Shown: one piece after another, positions 11,731 to 17,846 of the stretch | Position numbering within the stretch: position 1 is the first letter of the stretch | Layout: each line of letters begins with the position of its first letter | Assembly (NCBI GenBank): GCA_965221905.1 | Contig: OZ244922.1 | Location: 3,360,001 to 3,424,000 of the forward strand | Source: Chloroflexota bacterium | GTDB lineage: Bacteria > Chloroflexota > UBA11872 > VXOZ01 | DNA: 64,000 nt | Direction: 5' to 3' | Made by a program: the position numbers and the translations under genes | The notes under the pieces: generated by a model | Database searches by the model: none | Told to the model about the DNA's origin: nothing | Seen by the model: the letters and a program-made list of their open reading frames with translations, nothing else

Positions 11731-12432
11731 CTATTGATGTGGTCTAATTATCCCAGTGAGTAATGGAACGTTGTAGAAATCTCCTAACCATATGGTTGCA
11801 TCCTTATCGTCAGAGCATTCCCAGTAGCCGTATGCAAATACGCCTTCTTGTATGATTCTCATGTTGGCCAATGGAGAATCATCATATAGGCCTCTAAAGA
11901 AATCTACTCTTTCGCGGTCAATACCAATTTGCGATACTTTTGCTTGAACACTATGGGTTTCAGGAACTCTGTAGCCTTTTTCGTAATAGAAGAGCCCTCG
12001 GATGATTCTTTCCGCGACCCGATCGACTCTATCCACTTCTGGGAAACTGACAAGGTGAGTGCGATTTGGGATCAATAGATTACCCCTAGTGACCACAGGG
12101 ACTTCCTGCATTTCTTCGAGAATTCTGAAGGCCAGCCCATTTAAGCCAGGACGTGCCAATCTTGTGTATACTTCTTCCTTCTTGCGCTCGATAATCTCTC
12201 TATCCTGATCCGATACCTCTAAGAACCCATTAGCAATCATCCCGTCTGCGGCAAATAAAGCACCGCACATGAAATATTCATCATCCTTTGACGAACCTTG
12301 ACACTTTTTGCAGGATGGGACGGTTATGAGGTCATCGTCGTTCGGTGGTGGCTTTGGAAAGATACATCTAGGCGGAACGTGGTCCCTAGTTGCTGGGTTT
12401 TCGGTTCCACAGTAAACACAATGATTCTCCAC
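11731..12432 (-). CDS. HNH-like zinc-binding endonuclease domain protein
   Basis: CVYC...TRDHVPP...ITVPSCKKC...SKDDEYF; AT-richer than its flanks. Confidence 0.75.
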   Translation of the reverse strand: MENHCVYCGTENPATRDHVPPRCIFPKPPPNDDDLITVPSCKKCQGSSKDDEYFMCGALFAADGMIANGFLEVSDQDREIIERKKEEVYTRLARPGLNGLAFRILEEMQEVPVVTRGNLLIPNRTHLVSFPEVDRVDRVAERIIRGLFYYEKGYRVPETHSVQAKVSQIGIDRERVDFFRGLYDDSPLANMRIIQEGVFAYGYWECSDDKDATIWLGDFYNVPLLTGIIRPHQ

Positions 12433-12657
12433 TACTTCCTTGTCCTCGTTGTGCGGCTCAGATCTCTCTTAGTCCTTAAGACCTCTTGTCTATGGTGCTC
12501 GCAAGAATTGACTTCATCAGGCTACCTACCCACGTAATGTGGTCAAGAATGACCTTACTATAGCGTATTTATTCCCGGCAAATGAGAAGGGGTAACGCGC
12601 GTTAGGCTGGTTACGGCGCGGAACAGACCATCAACTGGGAGGGAGAATCGTCGCATA

Positions 12658-12909
12658 TCATGAAGGAAGAATAAATACCTCTTCCTCGGCGGTTACGTGC
12701 TCTATCAGGGCTTTCTCTATAGGTATTCCTTCTGAATTGAGCCGGCTGAGCAGCCGATCAAGGTTCGTGTCGCTCCCTACGACGGTCTGGTTTAGTATTG
12801 CGACCCACTGTTCAGGAAACTGTTGGAGAAGCCCCTCGTAGCAAGACTCGTAGTAATCAATGTCCTGCTGAAAGCGGGCGATACTTTCTTGTTGGCTCTC
12901 TGGGGTCAT
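12658..12909 (-). CDS. Small DUF5678-like protein
   Basis: 83 aa with LLQQFPEQWVAILNQTVVGSD motif; AGGAGG RBS. Confidence 0.7.
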   Translation of the reverse strand: MTPESQQESIARFQQDIDYYESCYEGLLQQFPEQWVAILNQTVVGSDTNLDRLLSRLNSEGIPIEKALIEHVTAEEEVFILPS

Positions 12910-13053
12910 TACAGGGTGCCTCCTGACTGGTCTCTAACTAGAGTATCATAGTACATTTAGGTCACTCAATGCCCTTGCCCGCTGTCCGCATGATTCTGTA
13001 CTGTAAGTGCAGAGTATCCTCATGATCATGCATGGTTGCGGTGGAGTATCCTG

Positions 13054-13722
13054 GTGGCGGATCAGACCCCTGAGCAAGTCCTAGACGAAATTGGCGCGGA
13101 AGTGCGGCGGTGCACGGCGTGTCGGCTTTGCGAGAAGCGGACTAAGGCCGTGCCGGGTGAAGGGGCGCTCAAGAGCGGCATCATGTTCATCGGCGAGGGG
13201 CCGGGGTTTCACGAAGACCGGCAGGGGAGGCCGTTCGTTGGGCAGGCGGGGAAGCTGCTGGAGGAGATGCTGGCCGCCGTCGGCTTGCGGCGCGAGCAGG
13301 TGTACATTACTAACGTCGTCAAGTGCCGTCCGCCGGACAATCGCGATCCCCAACCGGACGAGATCGCCGCCTGCAACGGCTACCTAGACCGCCAACTTGC
13401 CGCCATCGATCCCCGCATCGTCGTCACGCTCGGCCGCTTCTCGCTGGCGCGCTTCTTTCCAGGAGCGAAAATTTCCGCCGTTCACGGAGAGCCCAAATTC
13501 GCAGATGGTCGCGCCTACGTGCCCTTCTACCATCCGGCGGCGGGCCTGCGCACTCCAGCCATCAAGCAGATGCTTTTCGATGACGTTCAAAAGCTGCCCG
13601 CCATTGCCAAGCGCCTCAAAGAACTGGATGCGCAGGGATTGTTCGACCGGCAAGAGACGGAAGCCGCAGTCGCCGAAACCGCCGAAGACGATCCCGCCGC
13701 CGATCAACTCAGCCTGTTTTGA
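13054..13722 (+). CDS. Uracil-DNA glycosylase, family 4 (Fe-S type)
   Basis: CTACRLC, IGEGPG, GRPFVG, ITNVVKCRPPDNRDP, YHPAA; start placed at GTG 13054 after GGAG. Confidence 0.92.
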   Translation: MADQTPEQVLDEIGAEVRRCTACRLCEKRTKAVPGEGALKSGIMFIGEGPGFHEDRQGRPFVGQAGKLLEEMLAAVGLRREQVYITNVVKCRPPDNRDPQPDEIAACNGYLDRQLAAIDPRIVVTLGRFSLARFFPGAKISAVHGEPKFADGRAYVPFYHPAAGLRTPAIKQMLFDDVQKLPAIAKRLKELDAQGLFDRQETEAAVAETAEDDPAADQLSLF

Positions 13723-13800: not shown

Positions 13801-13969
13801 CTAGAATTAGCCCAATAAATACAAAGCTCTGCGCAGACCTGCCCTTCGACAGGCTCAGGGCGAACGGGAAGACGAAAAATCCGTTCGTGCTGAGTTTGTC
13901 TGTCCTGAGCTTGACGAAGGGTCGAAGCACGAAACGGCAAGTCGAATCTATTTATGAGATAGCTTCTAG
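13801..13969. mobile_element. Short CTAG-ended MITE-like element carrying a REP doublet
   Basis: Left end ctagaa-N8-ataaat mirrors right end atttat-N8-ttctag; inside are cccttcgacaggctcagggcgaacgg and ccgttcgtgctgag. Confidence 0.5.
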
Positions 13970-14039: not shown

Positions 14040-14467
14040 GAGATCGTTGCGTAACTCCGCCAAACAGGTGGAATCGGGCTGGATCGGCGCGGACTTCCCC
14101 TCAACCCGACCCTCTCCCTCTCTCTTGTACAGACTGGGGACATAGGTAACAGTTGTTCGGGGACATGGGTTACACATTTTACTGATTGACACCTACGGGA
14201 GCTTTGGGTTGGGCGGGGATTGAGACGCAACTGGCGACACAACGTGCTCATGTTCAGCTTGCAGCTTGTGCCAGAGAAACAAACCGTGTGCACTAGGGTA
14301 TTGAGTGGATATAGCTTTCAAGGCAAGGACATTGCATTCTACGAAAACTCCCAAGTTCTATGGTGTAACCTATGTCTCCGAACATGTGTAACCTATGTAC
14401 CCGGTCTATACACTCTCAGGACGAGGGAGGTCTTCTCGCCAGCCGGCCCGGGTTATGCAAAGGTCTC
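14040..14467. mobile_element. Non-autonomous IS5/IS1182-like TIR element inserted in a REP hairpin
   Basis: TIRs gagatcgttgcgtaac and gttatgcaaaggtctc (13/16 match); flanks ctcagt and ctcaat; no transposase. Confidence 0.65.
14126..14412 (-). mobile_element. Internally deleted IS481-family remnant (MITE)
   Basis: About 50-bp imperfect TIRs TGTACAGACTGGGGACATAGGTAACA.../TGTATAGACCGGGTACATAGGTTACA...; degenerate transposase traces on the minus strand (ttg cct tga aag for MPWK, RFVSLAQ, NMSTLCRQ, KCVTHVPEQLLPMSPVCT); flanks ctctct and ctctca. Confidence 0.85.
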
Positions 14468-14526
14468 CTCAATGGAGAGGGTAGAATGCCACTTGTGTCG
14501 GGTTTACTGCTGCGCTAGTATCGAAT

Positions 14527-14720
14527 CTGGCGAAGTCCCGCGCCAAACTCTCTTTCCGGATACCTGCGCTATCTGGCGATGGCGAGAGCAAAGGGGATAT
14601 GTGTCCTCGGGAACGCACGTGACTGTGCTTATTGTTCCGTAATCGTTGGAGCGTTTCTCAAGAGAGAGGCCAAAGCGCGCAGGGCAATGGCTGATCTCCT
14701 TATGAGAAAGGGTTTCAGCA
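14527..14720 (+). promoter_or_regulatory. Candidate structured cis-regulatory RNA leader
   Basis: Six to seven complementary segment pairs in 190 nt directly 5' of the GTG at 14721, including a hairpin covering the RBS; no Rfam family recognised. Confidence 0.45.
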
Positions 14721-16034
14721 GTGACGAAGCAAAAGCACTTCAAACAGCTTGTCCGTGCGCGCATGGCGAAGACCGGCGAGAGCTATACTACCGCTCGCCG
14801 CCACGTACTCGCAGCCCAAACCAAAGGCGAATCTTCCGTGGCTGATCTTCCCCACTTTCCCGGCATTCACCCGGAGACAACGGCCCTGCGCGCGGCCTTA
14901 GCCCACGCGGGTGTCACCAATCCGCACACCGGCGAATTCTTCACGGAGCCCATGGTCTTCGGCATCGCCGGCGGCATCGGCGCCGGCGTATTCCACTTCT
15001 ACTATGCTGCCGAGGATTTCGCCAGCTTCTATATCGCAGGTCGGCACCGCTGGCAGGAGGGCGACGCGTATCTGATCGACGCTTGCCGACGGTTCGGCGT
15101 GACGCCAACGGTCCTTGAAACCGGCGCCAAGAAGCGCGCCGCTACGCAATTGGCTGAAGCGGTTGCTGCCACCGGCTGCGCCGTCGCCTGGGTGGATATG
15201 GGATTCCTGCCCTATCGCGGTATGTCTACCTGCGTCTCCGGCGGCGGCTACCACGTGATTTCGGTCTATCGTGTCACGGACGAGGAAGCGCTTATAGGCG
15301 ACCTTACCGACGATCCGATATCGATTTCGCTCGATGACCTAGCAGAAGCCCGTGCCCGTATCAAGAAGCAGAAGAATCGTGTAATGACCGTTTCCAGCCC
15401 GCAGGAGGACATTGATCTGCGTGAAGCCGTGCTGGCGGGCATACAGGCGTGCCAAGACGGACTCATAAACCAGCGCATGAAGAATTTTACCCTGGAGGCG
15501 TTCAAGACCTGGGCCGACCGCATCCACGGCAGCAGCGGCAAAGATAGCTGGGAACAGGTCTTTCCACCGGGGCACCGCCTGCTGCAAGGGCTGCGCTCGG
15601 TATACGACTTTGTCGAGCACTACCACACCGGCGGCGGTCTGATGCGCCCGCTCTACGCCGCGTTCTTCCAAGAGGCAGCCGAGGCGTTGGACGATGAAGC
15701 GTTCGTGCCGTTGGCGGAGATGTACGCCGAGCTTGGGCGACAGTGGAGCGACCTAGCTGATGCAGCTTTGCCTGATAGTGTCGCGCCTTTCCGCGAGGCG
15801 AAGGAACTGCTGGCCCGCCGAGAAGAGCTCTTTCTCAGTGAAGCACCCAACGCTACAGAGGAAATCGAAGGTATCTGGATCCAACTCACCGCTCTGGAAC
15901 AGGCCATGAGCGCCGACTTCCCCCTCACGGATGCGGATAGCGCACGCCTGAGAGCGGAGTTGAAGGAGCGCATCCTCGAAATCTACGCAAACGAGCGCGC
16001 CGCCCATGAGGCGCTGGGCGACCAGGTGACTTAG
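14721..16034 (+). CDS. BtrH N-terminal / DUF4872 domain protein with basic N-terminal helix
   Basis: MTKQKHFKQLVRARMAKTGESYTTARR N-terminus; TEPMVFGIAGGIG, WVDMGFLPY, GGYHVI, GGGLMRPLYAAFFQEAA. Confidence 0.75.
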   Translation: MTKQKHFKQLVRARMAKTGESYTTARRHVLAAQTKGESSVADLPHFPGIHPETTALRAALAHAGVTNPHTGEFFTEPMVFGIAGGIGAGVFHFYYAAEDFASFYIAGRHRWQEGDAYLIDACRRFGVTPTVLETGAKKRAATQLAEAVAATGCAVAWVDMGFLPYRGMSTCVSGGGYHVISVYRVTDEEALIGDLTDDPISISLDDLAEARARIKKQKNRVMTVSSPQEDIDLREAVLAGIQACQDGLINQRMKNFTLEAFKTWADRIHGSSGKDSWEQVFPPGHRLLQGLRSVYDFVEHYHTGGGLMRPLYAAFFQEAAEALDDEAFVPLAEMYAELGRQWSDLADAALPDSVAPFREAKELLARREELFLSEAPNATEEIEGIWIQLTALEQAMSADFPLTDADSARLRAELKERILEIYANERAAHEALGDQVT

Positions 16035-16369
16035 GCTCTGCTTGATCAGTAGTTTTCACGGGGTTAACCACAGCGCCTAACAATGTCGTGTAACCTGCAC
16101 GAGACACAGCTCCTAATGGCAGCGGTGTGGTGTCCTGCTTGGACCTCAATTAGGAAAGTATGGCGGCCAATGTCAGGAAATGACCACCGCGAATCCTTTG
16201 GGGTCTTAAGAAGGTTGACTGAAAGATCTGGTGTCATCTCCGCCAACACAATCCTCTGCTCCACTACAAACAGATTAGCTAACAAAGGCATTGACGTTTT
16301 CAATGTATCTCTTGCTGCTGTGGTAAGCTAAGGCAGTAGTTTAGAAGGTAGAGAGTTGGTGTGTTTCTT

Positions 16370-17206
16370 ATGGAAGAAAATATCTCCAATTGGACAAACA
16401 CGATTCATGTGGGAGATTGTCTTGATGTAATGAAGAATATGCCTTCTGATTCTGTTGACCTAATTGTGACATCTCCCCCATACGCCGATGCCCGACAGCA
16501 TACCTATGGTGGAATTCCCCCAAAAGCCTATGTTTCTTGGTTTTCGGATAGGGCAGAACAGATGTTGCGAGTGCTGAAGCCATCAGGTTCTCTTGTCCTG
16601 AACATCAAAGAAAAGGTTGTTGACGGTCAGCGACATACCTACGTCTTGGAACTGATACTAGCACTAAACAGAGATATTGGTTTCCGGTGGGTAGAGGAAT
16701 ACATTTGGCACAAGACTACAGCAGCTCCAGGCAAGTGGAAATACCGATTCAGGGACTCGTGGGAGAGGATTCTGCACTTTAGTAAGACGCCGGACCTGAA
16801 AATGAGGCAAGATGCCGTCAAAGTGCCTGTTGGAGACTGGACGAAGACTCGTCTAAAGAACATGAGTGCGAATGACCTTACTCGGCAGGAATCAAGGACG
16901 AACTCTAAGGTAGGCCGACGAATAGCCGCATGGGAAGGAAAGAGAACAGTTTATCCAAGCAACGTCTTGCATCGCTCGCCAATAGCCCATAACACTGGCC
17001 ACAGCGCCGCTTTCCCTGAATGGCTTCCAGAGTTCTTTATCCTATTGTTTACTGATGAGGGCGATGTTGTTCTTGATCCTTTCTCTGGCAGTGGAACTAC
17101 GTACCGCGTTGCGGAACGCCTGGGGCGAGTACCTGTAGGGATAGAGATTAACGAAGAATATGTCCAAGAACAGCTCTATTTTCGACAACAGGTCAGTGAT
17201 GTCTAA
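16370..17206 (+). CDS. Site-specific DNA methyltransferase (N4/N6 amino-MTase, beta class)
   Basis: Catalytic VTSPPY precedes HSAAFP and the SAM-binding motif VLDPFSGSGTT. Confidence 0.92.
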   Translation: MEENISNWTNTIHVGDCLDVMKNMPSDSVDLIVTSPPYADARQHTYGGIPPKAYVSWFSDRAEQMLRVLKPSGSLVLNIKEKVVDGQRHTYVLELILALNRDIGFRWVEEYIWHKTTAAPGKWKYRFRDSWERILHFSKTPDLKMRQDAVKVPVGDWTKTRLKNMSANDLTRQESRTNSKVGRRIAAWEGKRTVYPSNVLHRSPIAHNTGHSAAFPEWLPEFFILLFTDEGDVVLDPFSGSGTTYRVAERLGRVPVGIEINEEYVQEQLYFRQQVSDV

Positions 17207-17846
17207 ATTGAGTTGGATTACTGATGAAGACCTGAATCATGCAATAGTAAAATTCCGAGAATCCGCCACTAATGCGTTGGATCAAGCAAAGAGACGCCAG
17301 CATAGGAATGTAATTGACCCATTTCTATCCTTAATCATCGCCTCTACTTTTGATATTGCCAGCAAAGAGGAACTGACACGATTACAGGAGAGCGAGTCCG
17401 CACTTAGGGGGATGTCAAATGCTCTCGGCCTTTTCCATCAGGACATACTTTCTGGTGTAGCGGGGTGGGTTAACCACGATGCTGGGTACGATTTGGATTG
17501 CCAGAGGAATAAGGAATTAGCAGAGATAAAGAACAAACACAACACAATGAACGCAGACAATAGGGAAAAGGTCATCAGCAATTTGGACACTGCTGTTAAG
17601 CAAAAGGGCCAAGGATGGAAAGGGTACCTAGTTATCATAGTTCCCAAAAAGCCTCTGCGCTATGAAAAAAGCCTTGGCACTTTGCGCCCAGTATTTGAGA
17701 TTGACGGTGCATCGTTTTACCACAAAGTGACAGGATGTGCCAGTGCACTGCATGATCTATTCGATGCACTCTGCAAGGACTTAACTGAATCACATGAGAT
17801 TGCAGAGTATTGCAGAGGGTTAATGACCACCTCCATTCCCAGGTAG
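17199..17846 (+). CDS. Type II restriction endonuclease, Eco47II-like family
   Basis: NVIDPF, NALGLFHQDIL, GYDL...AEIKNKHNTMN (PD-(D/E)xK), EIDGASFY; overlaps the MTase end by 8 bp. Confidence 0.8.
   Translation: MSKLSWITDEDLNHAIVKFRESATNALDQAKRRQHRNVIDPFLSLIIASTFDIASKEELTRLQESESALRGMSNALGLFHQDILSGVAGWVNHDAGYDLDCQRNKELAEIKNKHNTMNADNREKVISNLDTAVKQKGQGWKGYLVIIVPKKPLRYEKSLGTLRPVFEIDGASFYHKVTGCASALHDLFDALCKDLTESHEIAEYCRGLMTTSIPR

Follow-up and report, generated by a model that had tools for sequence, protein, structure and literature searches.

A structured leader RNA and a conserved N-terminal peptide travel together ahead of unrelated bacterial proteins: a candidate case of autogenous translational control

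Architecture of the locus

The window considered here (the whole stretch of 64,000 nucleotides of Chloroflexota DNA that was analysed) holds at 14527–14810 a representative of a unit that is widespread and has no name, made of a promoter at a fixed distance, a leader of ~170–250 nt and the first ~30 codons of a gene. In this copy, a structured 5′ leader of ~195 nt (14527–14720) is followed by a conserved N-terminal peptide of 30 amino acids (14721–14810). A first-pass annotation, made from the letters alone, had placed the region and the peptide correctly, and the first 30 residues of the product are as quoted there. The features are listed below in window coordinates, with helices (P) and pseudoknots (PK) named according to the comparative structure.

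14493–14521, + strand: putative promoter (TTGTGT 14493–14498, 17-nt spacer, TAGTAT 14516–14521)
14529–14544, + strand: P1 hairpin, GGCG 14529–14532 with CGCC 14541–14544, nearly invariant
14536–14612, + strand: PK2, P1-loop UCCCG 14536–14540 with CGGGA 14608–14612 just 3′ of P4, covarying
14548–14588, + strand: P2 (CUCUC 14548–14552 with GAGAG 14584–14588) enclosing P3 (14556–14562 with 14570–14576)
14563–14683, + strand: PK1 kissing loops, CCUGCGC 14563–14569 with GCGCAGG 14677–14683, loop–loop pairing of 7 bp
14593–14608, + strand: P4 hairpin, GGGGAU 14593–14598 with GUCCUC 14603–14608, double changes in four of six pairs
14610–14638, + strand: variable hairpin GGAAC...GUUCC, apparently optional
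14645–14719, + strand: 3′ domain, with P5 (14645–14659 with 14704–14719) and P6 (14663–14672 with 14688–14697)
14704–14723, + strand: Shine–Dalgarno (SD) region GAGAAAGGG (14704–14712) and GTG start
14721–14810, + strand: conserved basic N-terminal peptide, 30 amino acids, with nine residues invariant among 36 peptides
14721–16034, + strand: peptide-bearing gene, GTG start codon at 14721–14723
14811–16034, + strand: linker, then BtrH_N (amino acids 50–194, Pfam E = 2e-13) and DUF4872 (amino acids 205–356, E = 8.9e-25)

The start position is kept in 20 orthologues, and an in-frame stop lies five codons upstream of the GTG. Both Pfam matches of the product exceed their gathering scores (PF14399, 51.1 bits for a cutoff of 29.7; PF16169, 87.9 bits for a cutoff of 28); the NCBIfam model DarH_acyl reaches 48 bits, far under its cutoff of 300.

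Transcription is predicted to start ~6–8 nt past TAGTAT, at the foot of P1. Of 98 distinct upstream sequences, 89 have a TANNNT hexamer that ends 5–13 nt before P1 (80 of them at 6–7 nt), and none has one in a control window 20–28 nt upstream. Across 20 leaders, conservation sets in abruptly here, and upstream of the −10 none was found between lineages. A consensus promoter scan found no sigma-70-like site. Metatranscriptome contigs from relatives ~95% alike span the leader and the gene start (X1, 14438–14785; X4, 14584–14831; X2, 14640–14744). As evidence on the transcription start they were set aside: one already covers sequence ahead of the predicted start, and such contigs show no start, strand or level and are thus uninformative on this point.

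Structure of the leader

Folded as a single sequence, the window's leader is no better than chance, with an MFE of −71.8 kcal/mol (shuffles, −67.6 ± 4.5; z = −0.93) and equally good folds in 30 of 200 shuffles; the support for structure is comparative. Comparative analysis yields six helices (P1–P6) and two pseudoknots (PK1 and PK2). In the covariation count, based on 94 distinct leaders (a separate MAFFT-based version was also made), 95.3% of cells are paired and both-sided changes are found in 21 of 25 pairs; none of 500 shuffles matches the observed value, and slid controls reach a maximum of 0.123 vs 0.419 observed. Covariation in the leaders of peptide-bearing genes, which the first-pass annotation had proposed to look for, is thus found, extending to both pseudoknots.

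The 5′ part of the leader comprises P1–P4. P1 is almost without variation (only two compensatory exceptions to GGCG/CGCC among the 94 leaders), and its loop forms one arm of PK2. P2 and P3 show both-sided changes in all of their pairs (5/5 and 7/7), with 99.6% and 97.6% of cells paired, respectively, in the 94 leaders; P3 carries the 7-nt loop CCUGCGC (14563–14569). The CCGGAT/ATCTGG pairing seen at first pass is P3, with its compensatory changes, but two other early pairings were near misses. CGCCA at 14541 had been matched with TGGCG at 14580, a copy that is not conserved; what relatives keep is its pairing with the TGGCG copy further upstream, at 14528, as in P1. Similarly, GTCCC at 14535 does not pair with GGGAT at 14594, although the P1 loop UCCCG does pair, with the CGGGA of PK2. 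P4 is preceded by a nearly invariant CAAAGG junction, and one of its G·U pairs, retained in 87 of 94 leaders, is compatible with the gene's strand only. The hairpin proposed as GGAAC-GCAC/GTGC-GTTCC (14610–14638) is a genuine local hairpin in the window; within the genus it differs in both length and sequence (three species have inserts of 45 nt), and a second genus (g5) lacks it.

PK1, the long-range pairing of CCTGCGC (14563) with GCGCAGG (14677) first suspected from the window alone, is a loop–loop pseudoknot. Compensatory changes occur at 5–6 of its 7 positions. Among 47 non-redundant leaders, all seven positions are paired in 42 (by Watson–Crick pairs only in 38), in at least eight complementary classes, vs 89 Watson–Crick 7/7 pairings out of 1784 in a cross control; the remaining five leaders were missed through the loop-picking rule, and PK1 is complementary there by eye. 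Two more complementary classes were found in a further comparison, and the 3′ partner lies within a hairpin loop in 73/73 leaders. For PK2, 46 of 47 leaders have a self score of at least 4; the mean is 5.38, vs 3.98 for cross-pairing, and there are many distinct complementary variants such as UCCUU/AAGGA, CCUGUG/CACAGG and GCCCGCG/CGCGGGC.

The SD sits in the closing helix P5 of the 3′ domain. Covariation favours the pairing of UUUCUC with GAGAAA of the SD region in P5 (columns 197/254 of alignment A1 read UA 11, CG 6 and UG 3) and that of GAGAGGCC with GGCUGAUCUC in P6, which covaries too. The GTTTCTC/GAGAGGC helix proposed earlier gives way to these pairings, and the GCTGA/TCAGC helix thought to enclose the ribosome-binding site is lost as well, its pair being broken in some genus-1 leaders (A1 alignment, by eye). 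In predicted pairings, 70% of the SD-region positions find their partner in the 5′ arm of the 3′ hairpin, vs 38% in 730 flank shuffles, and such modelling indicates that the SD is sequestered across lineages. The predicted stability of the 3′ hairpin averages −40 kcal/mol. In the window sequence no U-run terminator follows this hairpin, and a terminator scan gave two terminator-like matches, which are P1 and the variable hairpin. Pairing of the peptide codons ACCGGCGAGAGC with the 5′ strands of P2 and P3 was considered and rejected: it is found in genus 1 only, and the change of P2 to CCUCC/GGAGG is not followed (by eye).

The leader has no counterpart in Rfam 15, in line with the first-pass view of it as a candidate new structured RNA: none of the 4227 families gives a + strand match inside 14527–14720 at E ≤ 10, nor a match at E ≤ 1 to the leaders of 14 loci from other phyla.

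Co-occurrence of the RNA and the peptide

A profile of the peptide matches 4164 cluster representatives (50% identity clusters) at E ≤ 0.001, and among the best 150 of these 4164 matches most align from residue 1. Searches of the peptide against Pfam, NCBIfam, PHROGs and PADLOC gave no relevant match, and the profile searched against all PDB chains (E ≤ 10) returned one weak, unrelated hypothetical protein only. The match to P0268, a repeat protein of 2317 amino acids, was discarded as due to chance. Forms of 55–63 amino acids on long contigs were rejected as a stand-alone version of the peptide, their Arg/Pro-rich tails resembling a frameshifted reading. Small stand-alone proteins related to the peptide do occur on viral contigs (L168 and L172). 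The R2 model of the RNA finds no match at either locus at E ≤ 1, a plain SD lies immediately ahead of the L168 start, and the neighbouring genes of both give no clue.

RNA and peptide imply each other almost without exception. From peptide to RNA, 61 of 61 peptide loci carry the RNA where it is expected and on the expected strand (59 of them with E < 0.01); these loci belong to Actinomycetota, Gemmatimonadota, Acidobacteriota and other Chloroflexota, and the RNA model was built from two Chloroflexota genera only. In 151 sampled Actinomycetota genomes, the RNA lies upstream of the peptide for 30 of 31 peptide matches (24 clear, six weak but correctly placed). From RNA to peptide, 24 of 25 RNA matches in the same 151 genomes precede a peptide, the sole exception being a decayed fragment, as do 6/6 RNA matches in five genomes. 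The R2 model gives exactly one match per locus in 100 loci, and at all loci examined the RNA reaches exactly as far as the start codon of the gene that bears the peptide. In the genome to which the window belongs, RNA and peptide each occur once, and no second target was found. Two orthologues from the same genus (L015 and L016) are without both RNA and peptide and have a plain strong SD instead. The joint loss in these two could be a single deletion of adjacent DNA.

The proteins behind the peptide are unrelated; they contain BtrH_N/DUF4872, DUF4287/SRPBCC, DUF1835, WD40, LRR, FHA or other domains, or no domain. With such diversity, the downstream genes do not form the coherent metabolic or transport set looked for in the case of a riboswitch. 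The first-pass statement that the peptide heads otherwise unrelated proteins is borne out by these domain searches, and so is the idea of a portable module: RNA and basic peptide travel as one unit before unrelated proteins across at least four phyla.

Candidate autogenous control and its alternatives

The strict co-occurrence in both directions, the sequestration of the SD and the one-to-one copy number together suggest that the peptide may bind its own leader and hold the SD closed, a form of autogenous translational control. This candidate reading, which we infer from sequence comparison, has in our estimation an even chance of being correct. The N-terminal peptide would be an RNA-binding module for its own folded leader; it would recognize the kissing complex or else the invariant junction, and its binding would stabilize the P5 state in which the SD is hidden, so that the protein would limit its own translation. 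Being first out of the ribosome, and close to the leader of its own message, the peptide may work chiefly in cis. A more ambitious version can be put forward only tentatively. The cassette would be a self-contained expression limiter, in which the nascent peptide clamps the kissing-loop fold of its own mRNA by shape, in the manner of Rop, allowing few proteins per message, and in which promoter, leader and peptide have been transplanted as a set to unrelated genes and have spread among four or more phyla.

Several observations run counter to autogenous control. The peptide matches no known RNA-binding family, the stand-alone relatives L168 and L172 have no RNA match, and the two pseudoknots and invariant junctions equally resemble a small-molecule aptamer. 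In addition, the very stable predicted 3′ hairpin may keep the SD closed without protein, so that an activating signal would fit better than a repressor. A further point against is that the kissing loops vary and the peptide hardly does, so that any recognition must target shape or the invariant junction. The main rival, close to the unnamed riboswitch that the first-pass annotation had offered as its alternative, is a leader acting as a riboswitch-like sensor of a small molecule, an ion or a trans factor that gates the SD helix, with the peptide providing a shared property (e.g. a nucleic-acid tether) linked to the signal, without leader binding. Such a sensor would account for a complex covarying fold with two pseudoknots and invariant junction bases, for the predicted masking of the SD by an expression platform, for a 3′ hairpin so stable that it needs an opener and for peptide relatives that stand alone without the RNA. 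However, it should also be found before peptide-less genes, yet the peptide is carried in 24/25 and 6/6 cases, with a decayed fragment as the exception, and the regulated proteins have only the peptide in common. We consider this possibility rather unlikely.

It is improbable that the peptide is a small DNA-binding domain, ribbon-helix-helix (RHH)-like or helix-extension-helix-like, that represses its own promoter (e.g. at the GGCG-N8-CGCC palindrome opening the transcript), the RNA being a separate matter. P1 is nearly invariant and lies just past the −10, so it could equally be a DNA operator, and two predicted helices of the peptide are joined by a G-x-S turn, as in RHH domains. A precedent is PutA, an enzyme with an N-terminal autoregulatory DNA-binding domain. 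However, the P1 loop takes part in the covarying RNA pseudoknot PK2, which argues that P1 acts at the RNA level; besides, no RHH family appears among the Pfam matches of 36 peptides at E ≤ 10, and the region upstream of the −10 is not conserved between lineages.

Strictly one-to-one with the peptide and much more elaborate than SD masking needs, the leader might be thought of, perhaps after processing, as a lasting RNA partner that controls the activity, folding or location of the protein, in the manner of type III toxin–antitoxin RNAs. This is very unlikely: the host proteins are unrelated and are not known to be toxins, neither a repeat array nor a processing signal turned up, and the location of the SD inside the structure points to translation. 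Lastly, chance complementarity, or conservation due to close kinship or an upstream coding frame, would agree with a single-sequence fold no better than shuffles and with the leader being read through by some gene callers (e.g. P0226), but it is contradicted by covariation across at least four phyla, by indels that are not multiples of three and by the in-frame stop ahead of the start, and its probability is negligible.

Significance and comparison with known systems

If the peptide binds the leader, the pair would be a compact, modular RNA–peptide combination reused on many unrelated proteins, which would constitute a new design principle in autogenous control and a part for synthetic biology. 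Even without binding, the leader is a widespread structured RNA absent from Rfam 15, marked by a clear genetic signature and by covariation in both of its pseudoknots. The reach of the system is broad (the peptide in 4164 protein clusters at 50% identity, the RNA in at least four phyla), and it offers a first handle on the domains of unknown function DUF4872, DUF4287 and DUF1835.

Riboswitches with long-range contacts share with the leader a conserved multi-helix fold, covarying tertiary pairings and an SD within a helix; unlike them, the leader matches none of the 4227 Rfam families, and the downstream genes have no common function beyond the peptide. In PutA and NikR-type proteins, an N-terminal ribbon-helix-helix on an enzyme or sensor domain binds DNA operators. 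The likeness lies in a small N-terminal nucleic-acid-binding module (here a candidate) by which an enzyme regulates its own expression, and the difference in the conserved partner, which is here a transcribed, covarying RNA, and in the lack of any RHH profile match.

The arginine-rich N-terminal peptide of lambda N binds the boxB hairpin and acts in antitermination. In both systems, a short basic N-terminal helix recognizes (here, would recognize) an RNA hairpin that is encoded ahead of the helix-bearing gene. However, boxB is small, whereas the present RNA is ~190 nt long with two pseudoknots and is found with diverse cellular proteins; a similarity in sequence was not found. Rop/Rom of ColE1, a 63-amino acid dimer of a small helical hairpin, binds the RNA I–RNA II kissing complex by shape and not by sequence. 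The leader likewise has two fully complementary 7-nt loops that kiss, and shape reading would fit variable loops combined with a constant peptide. In contrast, Rop acts on two separate RNAs, and the profile search of all PDB chains (E ≤ 10) revealed no sequence relation of the peptide to solved Rop chains; the likeness to Rop is only an idea.

Autogenous operators, among them those of ribosomal proteins L20 and S15 (pseudoknotted leaders), ThrRS and T4 gene 32, are also parallels to the candidate mechanism. As would be the case here, the product limits translation by binding to the structured 5′ leader of the mRNA that encodes it, and this leader often has a pseudoknot close to the SD. In these systems, the repressor is an entire protein whose principal RNA target lies elsewhere and is mimicked by the leader. 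Autogenous translational operators of RNA-binding proteins are the subject of at least part of one article (PMC10931766). In contrast to these operator systems, no second target was found in the genome of the window, and the candidate binder is a 30-amino acid module carried by unrelated proteins.

The gene and its leader

The peptide-bearing gene of the window has a GTG start codon and a product of 437 aa, of which residues 50–356 are covered by BtrH_N and DUF4872 and residues 1–40 match no domain. It follows a gene-free gap of ~1 kb, whose final ~195 nt form the candidate leader.

14721..16034, + strand, peptide-bearing gene
14527–14720, + strand, candidate leader
14136–14180 and 14363–14403, GTAACCyATGT-type repeat, inverted and direct copies, in the gene-free gap 5′ of the leader
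13847–13901, strong hairpin
13036–13722, uracil-DNA glycosylase family gene, within 11731–13722
12658–12909, − strand, DUF5678 small protein gene
16361–17206, N6_N4 DNA methylase gene
17160–17846, Eco47II-type endonuclease gene

The overlapping methylase and endonuclease genes constitute a restriction-modification pair directly 3′ of the window gene (16361–17846). The DUF5678 gene adjoins a 233-aa Cys-rich ORF (within 11731–13722) that matches no family. The hairpin, ~125 nt 3′ of the glycosylase gene, may be the terminator of that gene; its miRNA match is at chance level (E = 0.26). The repeat core has ~15 copies genome-wide, and it looks like a small dispersed repeat since RNA-library contigs stack on 14360–14412 with many different flanks.

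Single-sequence folding of 14527–14720 does not surpass that of shuffles (z = −0.93). The window protein is present in 27 of 41 related genomes, and the peptide is carried by 14 orthologues of the same genus (the window's own counted) and by six of a second genus, whose protein is 61% identical. All 20 share a strongly conserved stretch of ~200 nt up to the start codon, with an abrupt onset at a promoter-like TTG...TAnnaT. Two same-genus orthologues without the peptide (L015 and L016) begin near residue 40 and are preceded by a plain, strong canonical Shine-Dalgarno sequence (SD) and unrelated, repeat-rich upstream DNA. R1, a covariance model of the leader built from the two Chloroflexota genera only, found no leader in these two, in four more distant orthologues or in peptide-less paralogues. 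One paralogue of the same genome (L030, G000:C1:777330-778502; 33% identical) has neither peptide nor leader.

No Rfam 15 family matches the leader RNA (E ≤ 10 for 14527–14720), so the novelty proposed in the first-pass annotation is not removed by an existing Rfam family. The motif strings were not found in the literature searched, and the publications retrieved by domain name and by RNA-motif terms do not describe the leader–peptide unit; nor do the matching passages of Breaker and Weinberg survey papers, whose supplements could bear on novelty.

Structure of the leader RNA

The layout, obtained from RNAalifold and hand inspection, comprises from 5′ to 3′ helix P1, P2 enclosing P3, P4, an optional variable hairpin and a long P5/P6 3′ hairpin. 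The P3 loop has 7 nt (CCUGCGC), the P6 loop includes GCGCAGG and the 3′ strand of P5 includes the SD region. This fold is established by covariation. Among 20 close leaders, 96.5% of cells are paired and 35 cells carry double changes; the observed score is reached by 0/500 shuffles. In A4, a MAFFT alignment of 47 non-redundant leaders from several phyla, 92% of cells are paired and 17/25 pairs have changed on both sides (score 0.379 versus 0.185 in shuffles and ≤0.122 in slid controls). For 94 distinct leaders aligned to a second model, R2, and hence biased toward it, the corresponding values are 95.3% and 21/25 pairs (308 cells), with a score of 0.419 that 0/500 shuffles reach, versus 0.174 in the shuffles. 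One G–U pair, compatible with the gene's strand only, is retained in 87/94 leaders.

Two pseudoknots complete the structure. In PK1, the P3 loop pairs with the P6 loop 35–47 nt (mostly 39–41) upstream of the start codon; all seven positions pair in 42/47 leaders, by Watson–Crick pairs only in 38 of them, and the five misses are due to the loop-picking rule, the complement being visible in their sequences. When loops were confronted with the 3′ regions of other leaders, Watson–Crick 7/7 pairing occurred in 89/1784 cases. The long-range CCTGCGC/GCGCAGG pairing suspected at first reading recurs in several complementary variants: CUCACGC/GCGUGAG (13 leaders), CCCACGC/GCGUGGG (11), CCUGCGC/GCGCAGG (7), UCCACGC/GCGUGGA (3), CCCCAGC/GCUGGGG, CCCGCGC/GCGCGGG, CCCCCGC/GCGGGGG and CCGCCC/GGGCGG, to which two viral contigs, inspected by eye, add CCCACAC/GUGUGGG and CCCGCG/CGCGGG. 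The GC end of the loop, otherwise constant, is changed in the new class from viral contig L170. In PK2, the P1 loop pairs with the 5–7 nt directly 3′ of P4, and the score is at least 4 in 46/47 leaders (mean 5.38 versus 3.98 for cross pairs). The cross control is high because similar loops are common to many leaders, and the variety of compensated variants, with many different complementary pairs, is therefore the stronger argument.

Masking of the SD is predicted from folding the last ~90 nt of 73 leaders with the PK1 partner forced unpaired.

Table. Predicted folding of the 3′ region, compared with 730 mononucleotide shuffles of the flanks
Feature; 73 leaders; 730 shuffles
PK1 partner inside a hairpin loop; 73/73; 50%
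Loop with PK1 partner ≤9 nt; 81%; 20%
Positions −17..−5 paired to the 5′ arm; 70%; 38%
Mean folding energy (kcal/mol); −40.4; −31.1

A TANNNT hexamer ends 5–13 nt before P1 in 89/98 distinct upstream sequences (6–7 nt in 80) and is absent (0/98) from a control window 20–28 nt upstream; given this fixed distance, the transcript probably starts at P1, as predicted from sequence. RNA-library contigs of relatives span the leader into the gene start, though such contigs cannot reveal a 5′ end.

Co-occurrence of RNA and peptide

A search with residues 1–40 yielded 172 proteins of 240–765 aa and 159 shorter ones. The peptide does head unrelated proteins, as stated at first reading: behind it stand BtrH_N/DUF4872, DUF4287 with AHSA1/SRPBCC, DUF1835, LRR, FHA and WD40, and also regions belonging to no family. 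With a profile from 36 peptides, E ≤ 0.001 was reached by 4164 cluster representatives and 1e-10 by 1178; the majority of the top 150 matches begin at residue 1, and the offset ones look like start codons annotated too far upstream. The peptide has nine invariant residues and matches no known family or solved structure. Six peptide-bearing ORFs of 55–63 aa on long contigs (P0182, P0185, P0188, P0191, P0192 and P0207), with Arg/Pro-rich tails, look like longer genes read out of frame, perhaps because of assembly errors.

From peptide to RNA, each species was represented by one genome in a pattern scan, and the best 80 of 531 confirmed stretches were used. R1 matched at 61/61 loci outside its two source genera, on the right strand and ~100–190 nt upstream of the start (E < 0.01 for 59; 0.057 and 0.19 for the others). 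Hosts are Actinomycetota (Lentzea, Micromonospora, Dactylosporangium, Streptomyces, Nonomuraea and others), Gemmatimonadota, Vicinamibacterales and Limnocylindrales. From RNA to peptide, the peptide follows 6/6 RNA matches in five large actinobacterial genomes and 24 of the 25 found in 18 of 151 sampled Actinomycetota genomes; RNA and peptide, proposed as a pair at first pass, co-occur in both directions. The exception (L160, minus strand, 1501–1580), upstream of the ribosomal protein S15 gene rpsO, is a decayed copy with the 5′ domain only. Of the same 151 genomes, 23 contain matches to the peptide profile, 31 in total: 24 coincide with RNA matches, six show a weaker R2 match (19.6–36 bits), correctly placed and oriented, and L197 alone lacks one. 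Without the six unpublished genomes (G239, G256, G286, G358, G320 and G386), the counts are 20/21 from RNA to peptide and 25/25 from peptide to RNA.

The window's genome has one RNA and one peptide. The unit is patchy in Chloroflexota, being present in 23/98 genomes of the class (three genera) and, in a phylum-wide sample, in 4/151, all of the window's genus. The third genus (L053) has the RNA before a peptide whose fusion partner is a DUF4287-like protein instead of a BtrH protein.

Viral contigs carry seven peptide-like stretches, two of them weak partial matches, with the RNA at three (L169–L171). In L169 and L170, leader and peptide precede two further large proteins of no clear family. 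L168:1501–1665 and L172:1495–1656 encode stand-alone proteins of ~55 aa with a variant peptide motif, at loci lacking an R2 match at E ≤ 1; L168 has a plain SD immediately before its start. It is therefore probable that the peptide fold is not confined to the unit, and these two proteins may be related to the ancestor of the module.

Function of the unit

A sensor RNA could serve any gene and a generic nucleic-acid-binding tag any protein; RNA and peptide nonetheless are almost never apart across repeated domain swaps, which points to mutual dependence. We infer that the peptide binds its own leader; autogenous control by such binding has about an even chance of being correct. Against it, the 3′ hairpin may be closed unaided, the RNA is as elaborate as an aptamer, and no known RNA-binding family includes the peptide. 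A riboswitch-like sensor is rather unlikely, DNA-level autoregulation by the peptide improbable and a lasting RNA–protein partnership very improbable. The chance of an artefact is negligible. Under autogenous control, the N-terminal position of the peptide, beside its leader, would suit action in cis.
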